Virus genome (UHGV): UHGV-0264118
Source: a virus
Direction: 5' to 3' (one strand)
Length of the DNA: 16,029 nucleotides
This document shows positions 3,137 to 15,084 of this stretch, piece by piece. Both the position numbers and the translations under genes were made by a program. How positions within the stretch are numbered: the stretch's first letter is position 1; each line of letters opens with the position of its first letter. The notes below the pieces were generated by a model. The model was given only the letters and a program-made list of their open reading frames with translations. It was not told the origin of the DNA and ran no database searches.

Positions 3137-3433
3137 TTATACCTCTGAATCAATATCAACCTGGTGGTGGGCAATAGTTTCAACCATGTACCGGATGTGT
3201 TCTGCCATGCGTTCCTGAAACTCAACATCGTCATCAAACGCACGGGTAATGGCTTTTTTGCTGGCCCCGTGGCGTTGCAAATGATCGATGCATAGCGATT
3301 CAAACAGGTGCTGAGGCAGGCCTTTTTCCATGTCGTCTGCCAGTTCTGCCTCTTTCTCTTCACGGGCGATCTGCTGGTAGTGACGCGCCCAGCTCTGAGC
3401 CTCAAGACGATCCTGAATGTAATAAGCGTTCAT
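3137..3433 (-). CDS. gam: Gam (RecBCD inhibitor), short 98-aa form
   Basis: Translation [60 protein letters not shown]... matches lambda GamS. A good Shine-Dalgarno (CAGGAGTTCAGCCATG) precedes the start. Confidence 0.9.
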
Positions 3434-3508
3434 GGCTGAACTCCTGAAAATGGCTGTGAAAATATCGCCCGCGAAATGCCAGGCTGATTAGGAAAACAGG
3501 AAAGGGGA

Positions 3509-3799
3509 TTAGTGATTCAGGCCGTTACCGCGTCCGTCGAGAAAAACTTCCACGAGCAAATCACGGGTATAAGTGCGCTCGATGCCGCGATGCAGATATA
3601 GCCGTCCGCGTAAATTAGCTGATGCAGTCCAGGTACCATCTTTGTGTTTGACCAGCATTCCTGGCATGACCGCACCTCGATTAACGGTCTGCGTTCCGTA
3701 ATGTTGATGAACCATAAAAACTCCTGCCCGTAAGCTGGGCTGCTGAACATATAGAGACTTCTGCGCGTATTCAGGCGGTGGATGGCCGCCGGTTGTCAT
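3509..3799 (-). CDS. Hypothetical protein in the kil/cIII position
   Basis: Predicted 136-aa ORF (3509..3919) begins at a TTG. The first ATG ([11 protein letters not shown]...) at 3799 gives 96 aa with a weak GAGG upstream. GC-rich, no hydrophobic segment, no cIII-like motif. Family not recognised. Confidence 0.35.
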
Positions 3800-4273
3800 A
3801 ACTAAGCCGCCTCGTTGAAGCGACTGAGGTATGAGGTGTTGAGTTGATTTCAGCTGGTCACACCGACGTTCACACGTCCGTTTCACCCCTCGCACTCCCC
3901 GTAGCCTGCTGAAATTCAAGCTGCAGATCTAAGCGGTCATCGCAACGGTGAAGCGGTAAATCAGAAGATTGCCGCATTCCTGTGCCGTTGTGATGGATTT
4001 ATAATACCTATTGCTATTAATCATATCAATACGTATGGGTATCAATCGATAGCATTTGTTGTTATGCTGTTGATACTGAAAAGAATTTAATGTTGAGGTT
4101 TTTTGTGACATTCGACTCAAAATGGATTTTGCAATTAAATAACCAATTGATAACAATGAAAACATCACGGAGAACTAGATAGGCCAAATTACTTGCCACG
4201 AAGATAGTTGTAAGCGTTGATAACAATGGTATTGAGGAGGGATACCCCCGACAATTGCGTCAGGGGGGAGGGA

Positions 4274-4654
4274 TTATTGGGCTTTAATGTAATTTTTCAA
4301 CTTTGCAGTTTGCTCTACAGCGCTAGGAATGCATCCAAACATATTTGCGCATGAGGTTTGAACAACAATTTCGTTCTTATCGTTTCCTAAAGGTGTTTTT
4401 ACAACCTGATATCCAAGCACGGCACTATTTCCAATAGGAGTGTATGTGGAAATTACCGTTTCATCTGCCATCTGAATTTTCCAACCAGAATTCATTGCTA
4501 TCCAAGCTTTGGCTCTCGACCAATATGTATCGCATTGCTCTTTACCTTGACAGTAAACTGGTTGTTGAGCTTGTGCGGCAATTTGGGGATCTATTTTCTG
4601 AGCACATCCAGAGATGCTAATCAGAATAGCTGCTGTAACGAATAGTTTTCTCAT
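4274..4654 (-). CDS. Lipoprotein, likely lysogen-expressed moron in the rexAB position
   Basis: ORF MSMRKLFVTAAILISISGC|AQ... has an N-terminal signal peptide and lipobox (ISGC). The ATG at 4654 has an AAGGAA Shine-Dalgarno 6-7 nt upstream. Lies 48 nt downstream of, and co-oriented with, the repressor gene. AT-rich relative to neighbours. Confidence 0.6.
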   Translation of the reverse strand: MRKLFVTAAILISISGCAQKIDPQIAAQAQQPVYCQGKEQCDTYWSRAKAWIAMNSGWKIQMADETVISTYTPIGNSAVLGYQVVKTPLGNDKNEIVVQTSCANMFGCIPSAVEQTAKLKNYIKAQ

Positions 4655-4702
4655 TGACATTTCCTTTGTTTTGAATATACAACAAATAAATTGGCAAAAA
4701 AA

Positions 4703-5395
4703 TTATCCGTGTTTTCTATATGTCTGCGGCATGCTTCCAATGACTTTACCGAAGATGAACACCCGGTTCATCTCGTCTTTCTCGATCGGGTCCCACGGTG
4801 AGTAGCTCTTGTTATCAGAGATAACCAGCAGCTTATCCTTCATCATTTGCAGGCGCTTTACATGGGCTGTGTCGTCGTACAGAAACGCATAGATACCATC
4901 ACCGTCGAAAGATTTAACAGTGATATCAACGAACAAAAGATCACCTGGTTCGATCGTTCCTGACATGCTGTCACCGCGTACGTTAATGATGCGGATATTT
5001 TCTGCCTTCCTGCCATCGAACATGTGACGAGCATCGTCAAACGAGTACTCAACCGAGCGTAGAACTTCTACAAACTCACGATTGATGACACCCGGCCCGG
5101 CACTGACTTCTATATCAAGAACGTCAATCTTGAAGTATTTGGAATGGCTGACAGCAGGCTTCCCTGATTGTTGACCGTCATTTCTCATCGGGCCTATGCC
5201 TGATGAGAGCCACTCTGTTCGAACACCCAATGCATTAGCTATTTCAACAATTTTTGTTGAGCCGCGCGCGTTGCCGCTTGTCAGTCTCCAGATTGTGGGT
5301 TGAGCTACGCCAGACGCCTTTGCAAGAGCGCCTTGAGACATTCCAGATTGTTCCATCGCTAGGTTTAAGCGATCAGCAAGAGTTTCTTTTTTCAT
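4703..5395 (-). CDS. cI: CI-type prophage repressor (XRE-family HTH plus S24 LexA-like autopeptidase domain)
   Basis: HTH segment MSQGALAKASGVAQPTIWRLTSG. Ala-Gly cleavage site (EVSAGPG). S24 catalytic motifs GDSM and VKRL. The ATG at 5395 (MKKETLADRL) has no Shine-Dalgarno, consistent with a leaderless PRM-type transcript. The predicted TTG start at 5431 is less likely. Confidence 0.85.
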   Translation of the reverse strand: MKKETLADRLNLAMEQSGMSQGALAKASGVAQPTIWRLTSGNARGSTKIVEIANALGVRTEWLSSGIGPMRNDGQQSGKPAVSHSKYFKIDVLDIEVSAGPGVINREFVEVLRSVEYSFDDARHMFDGRKAENIRIINVRGDSMSGTIEPGDLLFVDITVKSFDGDGIYAFLYDDTAHVKRLQMMKDKLLVISDNKSYSPWDPIEKDEMNRVFIFGKVIGSMPQTYRKHG

Positions 5396-5505
5396 AAGTT
5401 TTAATTTATACGCTTGCGTATTGATGGTCAAAACACGTTTTGCTATTGATTGGGTTAATACGCATTGCTATTATCTATTCATTGCAATACCAATAGGAAT
5501 TGATA
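5396..5505. promoter_or_regulatory. Divergent repressor/cro promoter-operator region (PRM/PR-like)
   Basis: Intergenic region between divergent cI and cro. Near-palindrome ATACGC-TT-GCGTAT at 5408-5421 and related ATACGCATTGCTAT at 5457-5470. Candidate PR: TTGATT (5446-5451), 17-nt spacer, TATTAT (5469-5474). Candidate PRM on the minus strand: TTGACC then about 16 nt then ATAAAT, ending just upstream of the leaderless ATG. Confidence 0.5.
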
Positions 5506-5763: not shown

Positions 5764-6303
5764 ATGCAACCAATTACATACCAACAGACTAGCGGATTTA
5801 CCCCGGCTGCGGTGATAAATCGTTCTCAAACAAAACAGGCGCCAGGCCACGAAAAAATCCGTGATGCCGTTCGCGCCTGGTCGGCTGCAGATAATCAGGA
5901 TGTTGTTGCCGCACTCATTGTGAATGAGTATCGGGAGCAGGGCGGCGGCACCATCGATTTCCCTGATGATGTCAGCCGTGCACGCCAGAAGCTGTTCCGC
6001 TTCCTCGATAACAAATTCGATTCTGAAAAATACCGAAATAACGTGCGTGAACTGACCCCGGCAATTCTGGCGGTACTACCGCTGGAATATCGCGGTTACC
6101 TGGTTGAGCAGGATAGCTTCATGGCCAGGTTGGCTGAAATGGAAAAGGAACTCAGTGAGGCAAAACAGGCTGTCATTCTCAACGCACCACGCCACCAGAA
6201 ACTGAAGGAAATTGGTGAAGGTATTGTATCGATGTTTCGTGTGGACCCAGATCTGGCTGGTCCATTGATGGCGATGGTTACTACCATGCTGGGGGCGATA
6301 TGA
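5764..6303 (+). CDS. YdaT-like or CII-like regulatory protein (family assignment tentative)
   Basis: 179-aa ORF directly downstream of the cro-like gene, in the position of cII/ydaT. Motifs EYREQGGG and LTPAILAVLP recall YdaT-family proteins, from recollection only. Confidence 0.5.
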   Translation: MQPITYQQTSGFTPAAVINRSQTKQAPGHEKIRDAVRAWSAADNQDVVAALIVNEYREQGGGTIDFPDDVSRARQKLFRFLDNKFDSEKYRNNVRELTPAILAVLPLEYRGYLVEQDSFMARLAEMEKELSEAKQAVILNAPRHQKLKEIGEGIVSMFRVDPDLAGPLMAMVTTMLGAI

Positions 6304-8316: not shown

Positions 8317-8383
8317 TGAAACAGGTGAGTTGAGTTCAAACTGTAGTACAATTCTCTCCAGTTTGAACAGGAAAGAATATTCT

Positions 8384-8716
8384 ATGAACCCTTATATTTA
8401 TCTTGGTGGTGCAATACTTGCAGAGGTCATTGGTACAACCTTAATGAAGTTTTCAGAAGGTTTTACACGGTTATGGCCATCTGTTGGTACAATTATTTGT
8501 TATTGTGCATCATTCTGGTTATTAGCTCAGACGCTGGCTTATATTCCTACAGGGATTGCTTATGCTATCTGGTCAGGAGTCGGTATTGTCCTGATTAGCT
8601 TACTGTCATGGGGACTTTTCGGCCAACGGCTGGACCTGCCAGCCATTATAGGCATGATGTTGATTTGTGCCGGTGTGTTGGTTATTAATTTATTGTCACG
8701 AAGCACACCACATTAA
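8384..8716 (+). CDS. emrE: SMR-family multidrug efflux transporter EmrE
   Basis: 110-aa translation from the ATG at 8384 (MNPYIYLGGAILAEVIGTTLMKFSEGFTRLWPSVGTIICYCASFWLLAQTLAYIPTGIAYAIWSGVGIVLISLLSWG...) matches E. coli EmrE with its four transmembrane helices. The predicted ORF starts earlier at 8330. Confidence 0.95.
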   Translation: MNPYIYLGGAILAEVIGTTLMKFSEGFTRLWPSVGTIICYCASFWLLAQTLAYIPTGIAYAIWSGVGIVLISLLSWGLFGQRLDLPAIIGMMLICAGVLVINLLSRSTPH

Positions 8717-8747
8717 AAATAATTTGTTTCTAAACGACTAAAATATG

Positions 8748-8780
8748 GAGGCTCTTATATTTATATGAGCCTCGTTTTAT
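8748..8780 (+). terminator. Rho-independent terminator downstream of emrE
   Basis: Perfect 7-bp stem GAGGCTC (8748-8754) / GAGCCTC (8767-8773) with a 12-nt loop, followed by GTTTTATGCTTTTT. Confidence 0.6.
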
Positions 8781-8972
8781 GCTTTTTGTTAATGTCTTTA
8801 TTTTTTTATGTATTCTTTTGTGCTTTCAAGATTATGGCGTAAGAAAATTGCAATACGATTATTGTTGTATATTCAAGATAATGTGACCTTAATTGTCTTT
8901 TTAAATAAAAATTAAACAAAAATTATATCCCACCACTAAGGTTTATAAAAGCATACGTTAGCAGGTGTCACC

Positions 8973-10499
8973 ATGAAAAAAGCCATAGCATATATGCGAT
9001 TTTCATCACCAGGTCAGATGTCTGGCGACTCATTAAACCGACAGAGAAGACTTATTGCTGAATGGTTAAAGGTAAATAGTGATTATTATCTTGATACCAT
9101 AACATATGAAGATTTAGGATTAAGTGCATTCAAAGGAAAGCATGCACAATCAGGAGCTTTTTCGGAATTTTTAGATGCTATAGAGCATGGTTATATATTG
9201 CCAGGAACTACATTGTTAGTTGAAAGTCTGGACAGACTTTCAAGAGAAAAAGTCGGTGAAGCGATTGAACGTCTGAAATTGATTTTGAATCACGGTATTG
9301 ATGTTATAACTCTTTGCGACAATACAGTCTATAATATTGACTCTTTGAATGAGCCATATTCATTAATAAAAGCCATACTTATAGCACAAAGGGCAAATGA
9401 AGAAAGCGAGATAAAGTCAAGTCGGGTTAAATTATCATGGAAGAAAAAACGGCAGGATGCACTGGAATCAGGTACGATTATGACGGCGTCTTGTCCGAGA
9501 TGGCTCTCCTTAGATGACAAAAGAACGGCTTTTGTTCCAGACCCCGACAGGGTGAAAACTATTGAGCTAATTTTTAAACTCAGGATGGAAAGGCGCTCAT
9601 TGAATGCAATAGCCAAGTATTTAAATGATCATGCTGTAAAGAATTTCTCAGGAAAAGAAAGTGCATGGGGACCTTCTGTAATTGAAAAATTATTAGCGAA
9701 TAAAGCTCTGATAGGTATATGCGTACCTTCATATCGTGCAAGAGGTAAAGGAATAAGTGAAATCGCTGGCTATTATCCCAGAGTCATATCAGATGATTTG
9801 TTTTACGCTGTACAGGAAATTCGGTTGGCACCTTTTGGTATTAGCAATAGTAGCAAAAATCCTATGTTGATAAATCTACTTCGAACAGTTATGAAGTGCG
9901 AGGCTTGTGGTAATACCATGATTGTTCATGCGGTATCTGGAAGTTTGCATGGCTATTATGTTTGTCCGATGAGAAGACTGCATCGATGTGACAGGCCATC
10001 AATAAAGAGAGATTTGGTTGATTATAATATCATTAATGAGTTGCTTTTTAATTGTAGTAAAATCCAACCAGTTGAAAACAAGAAAGATGCTAATGAAACT
10101 TTAGAGTTGAAAATTATTGAGCTCCAGATGAAAATTAATAATTTAATTGCTGCATTATCTGTTGCGCCTGAAGTTACCGCTATAGCAGAAAAAATCAGAG
10201 TATTAGATAAGGAATTACGAAGGGCTTCTGTATCATTAAAAACTTTGAAGAGTAAAGCGGTGAGTTCACTTGGTGATTTTCATGCTATTGACTTAACCAG
10301 TAAAAATGGGCGAGAGCTATGTCGTACACTTGCCTATAAAACATTCGAAAAAATCATAATCAATACAGATAATAAAACCTGTGATATCTATTTTATGAAT
10401 GGCATTGTTTTTAAACACTATCCTTTAATGAAAACAATATCCGCCCAGCAGGCGATAAGTACTCTCAAATATATGGTTGATGGTGAGGTTTATTTTTGA
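8973..10499 (+). CDS. ybcK: Large serine recombinase (YbcK-like)
   Basis: 508 aa. N-terminal resolvase-type catalytic motif AIAYMRFSSPGQ (Y-x-R-x-S nucleophile). C-terminal Cys cluster (CEACGN...CPMRRLHRCD) and a coiled-coil segment typical of large serine recombinases. AGGTG Shine-Dalgarno upstream. Markedly AT-rich gene. Confidence 0.85.
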   Translation: MKKAIAYMRFSSPGQMSGDSLNRQRRLIAEWLKVNSDYYLDTITYEDLGLSAFKGKHAQSGAFSEFLDAIEHGYILPGTTLLVESLDRLSREKVGEAIERLKLILNHGIDVITLCDNTVYNIDSLNEPYSLIKAILIAQRANEESEIKSSRVKLSWKKKRQDALESGTIMTASCPRWLSLDDKRTAFVPDPDRVKTIELIFKLRMERRSLNAIAKYLNDHAVKNFSGKESAWGPSVIEKLLANKALIGICVPSYRARGKGISEIAGYYPRVISDDLFYAVQEIRLAPFGISNSSKNPMLINLLRTVMKCEACGNTMIVHAVSGSLHGYYVCPMRRLHRCDRPSIKRDLVDYNIINELLFNCSKIQPVENKKDANETLELKIIELQMKINNLIAALSVAPEVTAIAEKIRVLDKELRRASVSLKTLKSKAVSSLGDFHAIDLTSKNGRELCRTLAYKTFEKIIINTDNKTCDIYFMNGIVFKHYPLMKTISAQQAISTLKYMVDGEVYF

Positions 10500-10610
10500 G
10501 TAATAATCACTTTTTCAACCGTGCTATAGTAAGAAAGTTAGGTAAGTACAATAAAATTATCTATCCTGAACGAAGCGTCCTGAGCTATGGTTTTACTATA
10601 GAGACTGCCA

Positions 10611-10934
10611 ATGGATGCTGGCGTTCTCGTTCTAGCAGTTCAACAATACCCAATCACAAAACAATTCACTGATAACGAACTTTGCACACTCGCCTGGTTA
10701 TGGCGAGCAGGGAATGTGATGTTAATTACCTACCAGAACGTTACTCCTCTTCTTCAGGTTGCGGAGCATCGTGAAGCTGGTCGCTTCACTTCTATCGAGC
10801 AAGAATATCCCCAGATACTCAATAAGGCACAGGCAATCCTTGCCAGAGAAACGGCACATGTAAAATTCCGGCCGTGGCAGGATGATAAGTGGAGTCGAGT
10901 TTTGCCGCATTTACGTTCGGATCGATTACAGTAG
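10611..10934 (+). CDS. Hypothetical protein (107 aa), coding status uncertain
   Basis: ORF with a weak ribosome-binding site. No recognisable family. Flanked upstream by a 9-bp inverted repeat. Confidence 0.3.
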   Translation: MDAGVLVLAVQQYPITKQFTDNELCTLAWLWRAGNVMLITYQNVTPLLQVAEHREAGRFTSIEQEYPQILNKAQAILARETAHVKFRPWQDDKWSRVLPHLRSDRLQ

Positions 10935-11395
10935 ATTCCAATTAACAATGAGAAACACATAGCCACCCCGTGGTATTGAAACCATATAATGTTGGATTTG
11001 AAAACAGATCTTTTTCCATGTATTAATAACTACATCCCCGCGAGTGATTCAAAAAGGAGGGCCCAATTTTGTCCGAGTTTTTGTATTCCCCCGCATGCCG
11101 CTGCGGAGCACTACATCTGAGTGTCTGACTAGGGGATAAAATTAGACTGGATAGTGAGAAGAAAGTGGCGTGCTAGGCTGTGCCGAGTGCTACCAGTACA
11201 CCCTGGGGGTGTGCAGCTTTCGCCGAGACTGTAGTGGGTATCGGTTAATGCACGAAAAACCGAGAGGTCAGACAACCAATTTGCCGTAGGATTGTTTCCG
11301 GTGCGATACCGGTGTACTAACTGAAAGCAATGCGAAAAAGCATAAACTCGGTCCTTCAGTCGCCCTACACACTATTTACTAAGAAGGGCTAAAGC

Positions 11396-11752
11396 ATGGA
11401 TACAATTATCACATGGATGGGAGATCGTCTGTTGGGGTGGATAACAAACAAATCCGATCTGCGGCAGAGGGCAATCACTGGATTAACTCCTGCGATTTAT
11501 TCAACAATTTTATATACTGAAAAATTAAAACGTGGTGAGCCTAATAACCCAAACGAAGAAGAAAAACTTTATAGGCTTTGGTATGAAGCGTCTTCCCAAG
11601 TCGTAGACTTTGATCGAGAGCTGGCTAAAAGATGTTTAGATAAATCAGAATATTGGCTTCATTCTGAATTATATAGCCCTGAGAAAGTTGGAGAGCTAAA
11701 CATTTCTTTGGTTGGTATGAAGGCAACGCTTGAAGGAATAAAGCACAATTAA
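11396..11752 (+). CDS. Hypothetical protein (118 aa)
   Basis: AT-rich ORF (MDTIITWMGDRLLGWITNKSDLRQRAITGL...) with an AAGGG Shine-Dalgarno about 9 nt upstream. No recognised family. Preceded by a ~430 bp non-coding GC-richer region. Confidence 0.45.
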   Translation: MDTIITWMGDRLLGWITNKSDLRQRAITGLTPAIYSTILYTEKLKRGEPNNPNEEEKLYRLWYEASSQVVDFDRELAKRCLDKSEYWLHSELYSPEKVGELNISLVGMKATLEGIKHN

Positions 11753-11841
11753 AACCTTTGATTTGCGATAATCAACTCGCCATAATCATGTCATCGGAGC
11801 CTGAACAACTCCGGTGACTTCTGCGCTAAACGGGGACGTTT

Positions 11842-11943
11842 ATGCGCACACACAATCCAAACTCTCTTCTCCCTCCACAGATGCAGAAATGCACCTGCGA
11901 TATATTGTATCCAGCGTTTGACCTCTGCGGAGGTGAAGCGTGA
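11842..11943 (+). CDS. ylcH: Small protein YlcH-like (33 aa)
   Basis: Translation [33 protein letters not shown]. Its stop overlaps the GTG start of ybcN (GTGA). Below the 60-aa cutoff of the ORF track, found by manual translation. Confidence 0.5.
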
Positions 11944-12395
11944 ATCTCCCACAAGATGGCATCAAATTACATCGCGGTAACTTCACCGCTATCGGTCGGC
12001 AGATCCAGCCTTATCTGGAGGAGGGCAAATGCTTTCGCATGGTGCTTAAACCGTGGCGTGAGAAACGCAGTCTTTCCCAGAATGCACTCAGCCACATGTG
12101 GTACAGCGAAATCAGTGAATACCTCATCAGCAGGGGTAAAACGTTCGCTACTCCAGCTTGGGTAAAAGATGCTCTCAAACACACATATCTCGGTTATGAA
12201 ACCAAAGACCTGGTTGATGTCGTAACCGGTGATATCACCACTATCCAGTCGTTACGCCATACCTCCGATCTTGATACCGGAGAGATGTATGTCTTCCTGT
12301 GTAAGGTTGAAGCCTGGGCGGTGAATATTGGCTGCCACCTGACTATTCCGCAGAGCTGCGAGTTCCAGCTGCTCCGCGACAAGCAGGAGGCGTAA
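11940..12395 (+). CDS. ybcN: NinB/Orf-family recombination protein (YbcN-like)
   Basis: 151 aa from a GTG start with a GGAGGTG Shine-Dalgarno 5 nt upstream. Motif [19 protein letters not shown] parallels lambda NinB RSLDQNRKLW. Confidence 0.8.
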
Positions 12396-12565
12396 TGGCT
12401 ACACCGCTTATTCGTGTCATGAACGGACACATCTACAGAGTACCAGATCGTCGTAAGCGTAAACCGGAGCTGAAGCCTTCCGAAATACCAACACTGCTCG
12501 GATATACCGCCAGCCTGGTTGATAAAAAATGGTTGCGATTGGCAGCAAGGAGGAATCATGGCTGA
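12395..12565 (+). CDS. ninE: NinE-like small protein (56 aa)
   Basis: Manual translation [56 protein letters not shown]. Start overlaps the ybcN stop (TAATG). The 3' end overlaps the ybcO start. Confidence 0.7.
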   Translation: MATPLIRVMNGHIYRVPDRRKRKPELKPSEIPTLLGYTASLVDKKWLRLAARRNHG

Positions 12566-12848
12566 TTTGAGAAAAGCAGCGCGTAGTCGGGAATGCCAGG
12601 TAAGAATCCCTGGCGTATGTAATGGCAACCCTGAAACGTCTGTACTGGCACATATCCGGCTGACTGGATTGTGCGGCACCGGTACCAAACCGCCAGACCT
12701 GATTGCCACCATTGCATGTTCTGCCTGCCACGACGAAATCGACCGCCGCACACATTTTGTCGATGCTGCATATGCAAAAGAATGCGCGCTGGAAGGTATG
12801 GCGAGAACACAGGTTATCTGGCTGAAAGAGGGGGTTATTAAGGCGTGA
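12558..12848 (+). CDS. ybcO: YbcO-like Cys-rich putative nuclease (96 aa)
   Basis: From the ATG at 12558 ([64 protein letters not shown]...). The predicted ORF starts upstream at 12519 inside ninE. Confidence 0.8.
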
Positions 12849-13207
12849 ATACCTACAGCATCACATTACCCTGGCCTCCGAGCAATAATCGCTATTACCG
12901 CCATAATCGCGGGCGCACGCACGTCAGCGCAGAGGGGCAGGCATACCGCGATAACGTCGCCCGAATCATTAAAAACGCAATGCTGGATATCGGCCTGGCT
13001 ATGCCTGTGAAAATCCGCATTGAGTGCCACATGCCGGATCGCCGTCGCCGTGACCTGGATAATCTGCAAAAAGCCGCTTTTGACGCACTCACTAAAGCAG
13101 GTTTCTGGCTGGATGATGCTCAGGTCGTTGATTACCGCGTTGTGAAGATGCCTGTTACCAAAGGTGGGAGGCTGGAACTGACCATCACCGAAATGGGGAA
13201 TGAATGA
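12845..13207 (+). CDS. rusA: Holliday-junction resolvase RusA
   Basis: 120-aa translation [104 protein letters not shown]... matches E. coli RusA. Confidence 0.95.
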
Positions 13208-13344
13208 TGTTTGAGTTTTATATGGCAGAACGTCTTCGCCACCGCTGGGGGCGTCTGCGCTTATATCGTTTCCCCGGTTCTGTTTTGACCGATTACCGAA
13301 TACTGAAGAATTACGCCAAAACCCTGACAGGAGCAGGAGTATGA
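13204..13344 (+). CDS. ylcG: YlcG-like small protein (46 aa)
   Basis: Manual translation [46 protein letters not shown]. Start overlaps the rusA stop (ATGA). Confidence 0.55.
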
Positions 13345-13429
13345 AGTCAGAGATAACAATCAACTAATACTGTTTCGTTGATTTTTGCTTGTAATTGGCG
13401 TTCTGGTCTGATTTTTGTGGAGTAAGTTG

Positions 13430-13813
13430 ATGCGTGATATTCAGATGGTTCTTGAGCGTTGGGGAGCGTGGGCGGCTAATAATCATGAAGATGTGACCTG
13501 GTCGTCCATTGCCGCCGGTTTTAAGGGATTAATTACTTCAAAAGTAAAATCTCGCCCGCAATGTTGTGACGATGACGCGATGATCATTTGCGGGTGCATG
13601 GCCCGTCTGAAAAAGAACAACAGCGATTTGCACGATTTATTAGTAGATTATTATGTAGTCGGTATGACATTCATGTCACTGGCAGGTAAGCATTGCTGCT
13701 CTGATGGTTATATCGGGAAAAGGTTACAGAAGGCTGAGGGCATAATTGAAGGGGTGTTAATGGCATTAGATATCCGGTTAGAGATGGATATCGTTGTTAA
13801 TAACTCTAATTAA
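13430..13813 (+). CDS. quuD: Late-gene antiterminator Q, phage 82 type (QuuD-like)
   Basis: 127 aa from the ATG at 13430 ([34 protein letters not shown]...[16 protein letters not shown]...). GGAGTAAG Shine-Dalgarno upstream. The predicted TTG start at 13415 is less likely. Confidence 0.85.
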
Positions 13814-13846
13814 TACGCCAATTATTTACTAAAAGTTATTAAAAAT

Positions 13847-13865
13847 GGGGCGTTGAAACGCCCCC
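13847..13865 (-). terminator. GC hairpin with a flanking T-tract on the minus strand (candidate nmpC terminator or element of the late regulatory region)
   Basis: Stem GGGGCG (13847-13852) / CGCCCC (13859-13864) with loop TTGAAA. On the minus strand it is followed by ATTTTTAATAA. Confidence 0.4.
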
Positions 13866-13952
13866 AAAAATAAAGGGTAATATATAACAGAAGGTTTGTA
13901 TAGTTAGAAGCAAGGTTGTGCTTCTAAAGGAAGTGGCTTGAGGGAGCCACTT

Positions 13953-13990
13953 ATATGTTGGGGAGGCAAAGCCTCCCACAACATATCTTT
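13953..13990 (+). terminator. Candidate tR'-like intrinsic terminator downstream of Q
   Basis: Stem of about 11 bp, GTTGGGGAGGC (13957-13967) / GCCTCCCACAAC (13971-13982), loop AAA, followed by ATATCTTTT on the plus strand. Lies about 145-170 nt downstream of the Q stop. Confidence 0.45.
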
Positions 13991-14001
13991 TAGTAATCAA
14001 A

Positions 14002-15084
14002 TTAGAACTGGTAAACCATACCTACAGCAACGATATCATCGGTAGCAACGCCAGATGCTTTCGTGAAATCGCTCTTATCAATCAGGTTGATTTTGTAGTC
14101 AACAAAAGTGGACATATTTTTGTTGAAGTAATAGGTTGCACCTACATCAACATATTCAACCAGGTCCTGATCACCCCAAACACCCAAGTCTTTTCCTTTA
14201 GAATGCAGGTAAGCAACGGATGGACGCAGGCCGAAGTCGAACTGATATTGTGCAACAGCTTCGAAGTTTTGTGCTTTGTTGGCAATATGGTTATTACCAA
14301 AAACAGTCATGTTCTGGGTTTCAGAATAGGTGGTGGCCAGATAGATGTTGTTCGCATCATATTTCAGACCAGCTGCCCATACTTCAGCATTTTGACCAGA
14401 AGCATTCAGACCGTTGTTACCGTAGATAACCTGATTATTAGTGCGATCAGATTTAGCATAGGTTGCACCCACGCCGAATCCTTCATACTCATAAGTAGTT
14501 GAGAAACCGAAACCATCGCCATTAGCTTCAGTTACTTCATTTCGGTCATTTTTGCCCTGATACTGAGCTGCAAAGTTCAGGCCATCAACCAGACCAAAGA
14601 AGTCGTTGTTACGATAAGTTGCAACACCTGTGGTGCGACCAGTCATGAATACATCTGTTTGGGTCCAGGTATCGCCACCGAATTCTGGCAGAACGTCAGT
14701 CCACGCACCGATGTCGTATGCTACACCGTAGTTACGGCCGTAATCGATTGAGCCGTAGTCACCGAATTTCAGGCCTGCAAATGCAAGACGGGTTTTGTCT
14801 TTGGAGGAACCTTGAGATTCAGCGCGGTTGCCTTTGAATTCATATTCCCACTGACCGAAACCAGTCAGTTGATCGTTGATTTGGGTTTCACCTTTGAAGC
14901 CAAGACGGGCATAAGTAGTATCACCATCATCTGCATCATTAGAGGAGAAGTAGTGCTTAGCATTAACTTTCCCGTACAGATCCAGCTTGTTACTGTCTTT
15001 ATTATAAATTTCAGCTGCCTGAGCAGACATCGCCATCAGTACTGATGCAGCTACAGCAGAAATTGCCACTGTTAATTTTTTCAT
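14002..15084 (-). CDS. nmpC: Outer-membrane general porin (OmpC/OmpF family), NmpC-like
   Basis: 360 aa. Signal peptide [23 protein letters not shown]|AEIYNKD. Beta-barrel porin hallmarks and C-terminal ...VAVGMVYQF. Convergent with Q, between Q and the lysis genes. Confidence 0.9.

Follow-up and report, generated by a model that had tools for sequence, protein, structure and literature searches.

The KilR protein of the Rac prophage disrupts Z rings and mislocalises MreB; overexpressing FtsZ relieves its toxicity, and the C-terminal tail of KilR is indispensable (PMC12482147). ZipA, which is needed by the Kil protein of phage lambda, is not needed by KilR (PMC12482147), and kilR is silenced by NusG-dependent termination (PMC5793797). 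A gene of the family formed by KilR and the Kil protein of phage phi80 is very probably what is found in the locus considered here. The window, i.e., the whole stretch of 16,029 nt analyzed from the virus genome UHGV-0264118, holds in its ORF list a minus-strand ORF of 136 aa that runs from a TTG at 3919 to 3509 and whose first in-frame ATG, at 3799-3797, yields a form of 96 aa. With high confidence, positions 3509-3715 are read as the kil gene of a DLP12-like lambdoid E. coli prophage, belonging to the KilR/phi80-Kil family, and the rest of the ORF as untranslated leader.

The ORF lies between gam (3137-3433, leftward; Pfam Gam, E=3e-65) and the immunity region, in the kil/cIII slot where the first-pass annotation had placed it, and both lengths given there, 136 aa from the TTG and 96 aa from the first ATG, match the sequence. 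That description had also mentioned the lack of a hydrophobic segment and of a cIII-like motif; neither was found, nor was any match to cIII or to lambda Kil. Other parts of it had to be amended. As transcription is leftward, the ORF is located upstream, and not downstream, of gam in the pL operon, the gene order being cI, lipoprotein, pL, kil, gam, bet, exo. Its GC content, described as rich, is 52.3% vs. 50-52% for gam, bet, and exo, and is high only next to the immunity-side spacer 3920-4273 (39.5% GC). What had been presented as a single ORF of unknown nature has its conserved coding part limited to 3509-3715; this part belongs with phrog_294, is homologous to KilR and phi80 Kil, and is already annotated as kil in public records. 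Rac, phi80, and HK225 have kil at the equivalent place, in the leftward early operon with the immunity region on one side and the recombination genes on the other. No cIII-type ORF can be found between pL and kil, and none of the Pfam, PHROG, or NCBIfam matches is to a cIII family.

Regarding family membership, residues 60-136 of the long ORF match phrog_294, "Kil protein for bacterial septation inhibition", in PHROGs (E=2.5e-38). When the 68-aa form is searched alone (E=1.3e-37), its residues 1-68 fall on profile positions 13-80 of 83, which Rac KilR (E=7.5e-35) and phi80 Kil (E=4.8e-30) cover as well. The NCBIfam profile NF008465 (PRK11354, "FtsZ inhibitor protein") aligns over its positions 1-70 of 73 with residues 1-68 at an E-value of about 1e-17, its first position falling on M69 of the long ORF. 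Since the score of 61-63 bits stays below the curated membership cut-off of 92 bits, the window Kil is, judging by its sequence, a homologue of the narrow NF008465 subfamily built around Rac KilR that stands outside it. End-to-end BLASTP alignments give 36% identity with Rac KilR (E=9e-13) and 41% with phi80 Kil (E=5e-16), and the core motifs HYGT, PG, ASAN (ASAN/SA in the family), LYL, and V.FL (V.(F/Y/L)L) are held in common. The best AF2 model (pLDDT 84.7, the only confident one of five, the other four having a pLDDT of 48-62) displays six strands, leaves residues 1-7 unstructured, and has lower confidence in the tail at 60-68; such a predicted beta core with short unstructured ends agrees with the AlphaFold3 description of KilR (PMC12482147). 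In sequence, size, fold, and position, the window Kil thus agrees with the KilR/phi80-Kil family throughout, the one exception being the NF008465 cut-off.

The local Pfam copy returns no match for the ORF, which carries no information, Rac KilR and phi80 Kil being missed by the same copy as well; homologues of the ORF bear the precomputed family PF27398.1, which is absent from the copy searched. A PDB sequence search with the window Kil gives at best chance matches (E at least 0.3), and a fold search of BFVD retrieves one uncharacterized homologue from a Pantoea phage and nothing else. Eight complete E. coli genomes contain prophages that match the stretch 3434-4273 at 100% identity, and in strain 504239, which carries a 100% identical prophage, the PGAP CDS consists of exactly the 207 nt (WP_000233576.1, "phage encoded cell division inhibitor protein"); the RefSeq annotation of kil, as the 68-aa PGAP form, is already correct. 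In the record of phage Perceval, a 139-aa version is named "FtsZ inhibitor protein Kil, phage phi80 Kil homolog". Counting the gene as present where it is covered over at least 80% of its length, the 207-nt kil can be found in 2,178 of 5,426 complete E. coli genomes (about 40%), and relatives occur across Escherichia, Klebsiella, Enterobacter, Salmonella, and Cronobacter phages. The segment 3509-3715 can be assigned, by homology, to an already known and already annotated gene of the KilR/phi80-Kil family, a predicted division inhibitor. Kil proteins of a third subtype (MIGMHYGTASVPRSEVLPGTMLQHHGKTYRASANVEKGLYAFNIF..., 68 aa), distinct from the window and phi80 types, are encoded in many of the IMG/VR contigs that carry the leader module described below.

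The start of the gene is neither of those offered by the first-pass annotation (TTG 3919 or ATG 3799) and corresponds to the third in-frame ATG, at 3715-3713, 5 nt behind a Shine-Dalgarno sequence AGGAG read at 3721-3725 on the minus strand. An equivalent Shine-Dalgarno sequence and ATG are found in related loci ahead of kil or of another first gene. Among about 130 loci fetched, 96 display a Kil-type ORF of 68-73 aa (one of 76 aa), and in all 96 this ORF begins with M-x(2-4)-H-Y/F-G-T. Homologues from the protein databases are alike from MVHQHYGT onward, their N-terminal extensions are unrelated, and some begin exactly at that methionine. Where dS is measurable, kil has a dN/dS of 0.04-0.10 against the window allele; pairs further apart have saturated synonymous sites, with a dN of just 0.11-0.21. 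The gene at 3509-3715 is under strong purifying selection.

The upstream frame behaves otherwise. In strain LR-50 a TAA lies ten codons after the ATG corresponding to 3799, and the annotated kil downstream is intact; in two further loci (L051 and L126) the upstream frame is out of register with the same kil behind the same Shine-Dalgarno sequence, and in two others (L024 and L069) it ends before an intact kil that again has the same Shine-Dalgarno sequence. Stops or frameshifts in related prophages had been named beforehand as what would speak against the ORF; they do so for its upstream 204 nt and not for its 207-nt core. Because the core is conserved, the Shine-Dalgarno sequence is suitably placed, dN/dS is low, and the upstream frame is broken in relatives, the gene is 3509-3715, and 3716-3919 is non-coding. 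The remaining kil-strand ORFs of at least 20 aa in 3716-4000, namely a 35-aa leader frame (3870-3977) and the 3' end of a 79-aa GTG frame (3929-4168), are without support, and the 79-aa frame has no Pfam or PHROG match.

These data also bear on the idea of a longer protein, of 96 aa from 3799 or 136 aa from 3919, in which the Kil domain would carry a functional N-terminal extension. No stop interrupts the frame in the window or in most close relatives, metagenome gene calls most often give the 96-aa form (P0002, 472 members), the Perceval record annotates 139 aa, and a GAGG stands 10 nt upstream of ATG 3799. An extension need not inactivate the protein either, since N-terminal mCherry fusions of KilR still gave KilR-like morphological defects (PMC12482147). 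However, in more distant homologues the extension is unrelated, the frame meets a TAA in LR-50, is out of register in L051 and L126 and ends before kil in L024 and L069, and all profile matches begin at M69, where PGAP also calls the 68-aa form. Moreover, ATG 3799 is base-paired in a conserved hairpin (hairpin 1, see below) and the same bases are conserved in three reading frames. A longer functional protein is therefore very unlikely. As no stop separates ATG 3799 from kil, with which it is in frame in the window lineage, a minor 96-aa isoform may possibly be produced there.

That the whole ORF should be a chance open frame in non-coding DNA is extremely improbable. The absence of a Pfam match is all that would favor it, and KilR and phi80 Kil likewise have none; against it stand the strong profile matches, the dN/dS of 0.04-0.10, and conservation across phages of five enterobacterial genera. 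The idea is refuted for the 68-aa gene and holds for 3716-3919 only.

A minority of the E. coli copies of window-type kil exhibit internal frameshifts into an overlapping 77-aa frame (window 3517-3750). The frameshifted proteins (P0005, P0010, P0035, P0041, P0042, P0045, and P0076) form small clusters of 1-5 members, and such events fit an occasional inactivation of a toxic prophage gene.

With respect to function, the first-pass annotation had named cell-division inhibitors first among the host-acting gene types to be expected in this slot, and the assignment to the KilR/phi80-Kil family is in line with it. By homology with Rac KilR, the product would be small, cytoplasmic, and all-beta, and its C-terminus would form a short flexible tail. 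Following prophage induction, Kil would be made from the pL transcript and would transiently block host division by disturbing FtsZ ring assembly; it might also disturb MreB-dependent elongation. We infer FtsZ and MreB as targets by analogy with KilR, to which identity is 36%, the tail of the window protein being shorter and different in sequence. Given these differences, it can be asked whether the Kil fold serves another host target in the window subgroup, e.g., an anti-defense or anti-recombination function linked to gam/bet/exo. Identity to KilR and phi80 Kil of only 36-41%, the divergence of a tail that matters in KilR, itself a protein with two targets, FtsZ and MreB (PMC12482147), and the tight linkage of kil to gam-bet-exo, both in the window and in the 100% identical prophage, would be compatible with such a shift. 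Yet the PHROG is shared with the tested KilR, the core motifs listed above are kept, the operon position is the same as that of kil in lambda, phi80, and Rac, and no match to the window Kil is found among the PADLOC defense models. A change of target is accordingly quite unlikely, and a predicted action on division remains the preferred reading.

The gene is preceded by a probable pL promoter (TTGATA-17 nt-TATTAT, 4001-4029, minus strand; 10 of 12 positions matched in a promoter scan). The site sits within operator-like repeats (4003-4046) common to the pRM/pR region at 5404-5471, and it is conserved in relatives of the same immunity type; because it lies inside these repeats, 4001-4029 is considered as the probable pL with its operators. 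No N-like antiterminator gene is found among the window ORFs between this promoter and kil, and in Perceval and PhiR34_1 the pL-kil stretch likewise contains no gene annotated as N. With the promoter at 4001-4029 and no N-like gene before kil, the leftward pL transcript would begin with an untranslated 5' leader of about 278 nt (3716-3993, minus strand), in which the frame is not conserved and which includes the upstream 204 nt of the ORF first described. Folded as a whole, the leader is no more stable than shuffled sequence (z=-0.87). The leader was also considered as a homologue of the Rac KilS sRNA/5'UTR, and rejected as there is no sequence similarity.

A second transcript has to be reckoned with. 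The cI-lipoprotein transcript from pRM is co-directional with kil, and it crosses a hairpin lacking a U tract and 560 nt of untranslated RNA. This GC-rich hairpin (CCCCCUGAC...GUCGGGGG; 4245-4266, minus strand, from folding), just after the lipoprotein gene that follows cI, may be the terminator of the pRM transcript, but no call was made there by the terminator scan. Within the leader, C is in modest excess over G at about 3800-3873 (C/G 1.6-1.9), which is suggestive of a Rho loading site without being decisive. The leader would keep the toxic kil silent in the lysogen, either by termination or by the action of Rho on pRM read-through; by analogy with Rac kilR, Rho-dependent silencing can reasonably be proposed.

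The leader contains two hairpins that form, with the sequences around them, a module at 3774-3834. Hairpin 1 (3796-3834, minus strand) is a conserved irregular RNA stem of 16 bp on which the MFE and centroid folds agree. Local folding of 3760-3845 gives z=-2.6 against shuffled sequence, so that the local hairpins alone stand out. Across 32 distinct sequences, 96.7% of the cells of hairpin 1 are paired, against 29-50% in slid controls, and seven pairs are changed on both sides; its many G-U pairs fit the kil-sense RNA only. The conserved base of the stem, UCAUA/UAUGA, pairs with the ATG at 3799-3797, i.e., the first ATG of the earlier description. Hairpin 2 (GGCGG-CCAUCCA-CCGCC, 3774-3790, minus strand) is invariant in the relatives found, an invariance that is forced by the search pattern and gives no information on structure. 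In the window it is followed by UGAAUACG and no T run, whereas in CobraSix, HK639, and several viral contigs a T run lies near hairpin 2.

The frame opened by ATG 3799 (MTTGGHPPP...) might alternatively encode a regulatory leader peptide, in which an EF-P-dependent ribosome stall at the prolines would set the transcription or translation of kil. The ATG with GGHPPP recurs in more than 100 loci, S9-5 has lost 3 nt in frame (MNGGYPPL), a shared in-frame end at ...EVLY* is seen in many variants, and Rho/NusG silencing is documented for Rac kilR (PMC5793797). Codon invariance is, however, partly forced by the search pattern, and the ATG is sequestered in hairpin 1. The spacer after PPP, known in 26 variants, falls into 12 length classes whose frames split 5:3:4, so no frame is preserved. 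In CobraSix, a 1-nt deletion shifts the frame from the ATG and removes GGHPPP, and the bases of hairpin 2 are kept and followed by T7. A stalling peptide is consequently unlikely, with a small chance only. Because of the CobraSix deletion and the unpreserved spacer frames, the module is regarded as conserved at the RNA/DNA level and not as the peptide MTTGGHPPP; the same bases recur in three different reading frames.

The segment 3774-3834 has homologues in HK225, phi80, HK639, and Enterobacter, Klebsiella, and P22-like Salmonella phages, and at least 120 contigs were recovered when IMG/VR was scanned with a 23-nt core. Further copies were noted in three fetched loci (L005, 2991-3048; L006, 2864-2924; L130, 2520-2597). 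In the common layout, an intrinsic terminator hairpin and its T run come first; CATACC, hairpin 1, UU-AUG-ACAACC, and hairpin 2 follow, then a spacer whose length varies, the conserved block GCGCAGAAGUCU, and the Shine-Dalgarno sequence and ATG of the next gene, whose start lies 82-110 nt after the module AUG. This next gene is kil in about a third of the cases and otherwise one of at least 20 different genes; in most of the loci where it is not kil, kil is found within 600 nt. Existing annotations put the segment among terminators: it is marked "t-L1 regulatory signal" in phi80 M11919, it lies in phi80 JX871397 just after tL1A and about 120 nt before the Rho-dependent tL1B, and in HK639 (HM208537) hairpin 2 itself is annotated as a terminator. 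In the window, no intrinsic terminator (GC-rich stem with U tract) was called by the scan at 3774-3834, and since the copy lacks both the upstream GC hairpin with its T run and a T run after hairpin 2, it is unlikely to be an efficient intrinsic terminator.

Searches for other RNA classes were negative. Rfam gives no match at the gathering threshold over the whole window, and at the E-value threshold none on the kil strand (3400-4750 and the phi80 region). On the plus strand, an ALIL pseudoknot match at 3764-3865 (20.8 bits vs. a gathering score of 50, E=0.007) most likely corresponds to the leader hairpins read on the opposite strand, or to chance. The window holds no second copy of the module, e.g., downstream of pR, the core occurring once even with three mismatches allowed. 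An antitermination RNA of the nut/put type was considered and looks unlikely on these searches, given the single copy, the absence of an Rfam match, and the fact that nutL/putL of phi80 and HK639 are annotated elsewhere, upstream of the module. A literature search for the module sequence or the peptide found no mention of either. It is possible, and proposed here tentatively, that 3774-3834 is an undescribed cis-regulatory RNA of lambdoid phages and not a decayed terminator. Its possible roles include a processing or stability site, or an attenuator coupled to Rho and translation that would gate the toxic delayed-early left module including kil. The leader module is the sole part of the locus that is not fully explained and represents a modest lead.

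Upstream in the leftward direction, a cI-type repressor (4703-5431, leftward) is directly followed, in the position of lambda rexAB, by a gene for a 128-aa lipoprotein (4274-4660, minus strand) with a signal peptide ending in LISISGC. The latter matches phrog_16082 (unknown function) and is probably an accessory gene expressed in the lysogen, perhaps for superinfection exclusion. In the cII position, a plus-strand gene at 5764-6303 is of a type called "toxin YdaT domain-containing protein" by PGAP, and not a lambda-type cII. The right half of the window (8330-15084) resembles the E. coli prophage DLP12. It carries an SMR/EmrE-like transporter (8330-8716), a large serine recombinase of 508 aa (8973-10499) inside an island of 28-37% GC, an antiterminator Q (13415-13813), and an NmpC-type porin on the opposite strand (14002-15084), together with a C-terminal fragment of a P22 antirepressor and NinB-like, YbcO, and RusA genes.

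The practical value of the analysis is the correction of annotation, with the start fixed at the 68-aa form, as several phage records and most metagenome calls give a product of 96-139 aa or a wrong-frame "hypothetical protein". There is little discovery value in the gene itself, which belongs to a named, partly characterized family present in about 40% of complete E. coli genomes. The leader module could explain how Kil-type toxins are silenced in lambdoid prophages, in comparison with the Rho/NusG silencing of Rac kilR.

Regarding known systems, lambda cIII, an inhibitor of FtsH/HflB, resembles the window gene only in its approximate map position, with no profile or sequence match. Lambda Kil (47 aa; PF06301, phrog_3924) occupies the same slot directly upstream of gam, and an FtsZ-directed division block has been reported for it as well. 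BLASTP nevertheless returns no alignment of the two proteins at E<=100, and the window Kil has no match to PF06301, for which a lambda-type Kil scores 72 bits; on present alignments, they belong to different families that are unrelated in sequence. In phage D2 (L003, OM475427; 2238-2901), a lambda-type kil of 47 aa replaces most of a KilR-type kil behind the same leader, and the remnant of the latter is annotated "prophage Kil protein", which shows recombination between two unrelated kil types at this slot.

The tL1 region (phi80 M11919 and JX871397, and the double terminator of HK639) shares with the window leader the CATACC motif, hairpin 1, and the GGCGGCCATCCACCGCC hairpin. In contrast to it, the window copy is without the preceding GC hairpin and T run, and its hairpin 2 is without the T run that follows in HK639 and CobraSix. 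In phi80, the module is also part of the pL operon, next to the annotated tL1A/tL1B; there, gene N and a perfect intrinsic terminator precede it, and it is separated from kil by other ORFs, whereas in the window neither an N gene nor a perfect terminator is present and kil follows the module directly. At the protein level, phi80 Kil (PHI80_42, 69 aa) and the window Kil have the C-terminal motif LDG.GN.L.H in common.

Rac KilR (E. coli K-12 b1352) differs from the window Kil in its C-terminal tail, of 12 aa (GRDGLPVKAESW) instead of 9 aa (DGRGNGLNH), and in its neighbors, recET in Rac and gam-bet-exo in the window. The likeness is otherwise extensive: both proteins match PHROG 294 over the same profile span, begin with the same Met-x3-H-Y/F-G-T, are of similar small size (68 aa in the window vs. 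73 aa in Rac), and have a predicted beta core with short disordered ends, and each is encoded behind a long untranslated leader by the first toxic gene of the leftward early operon, before the recombination genes.
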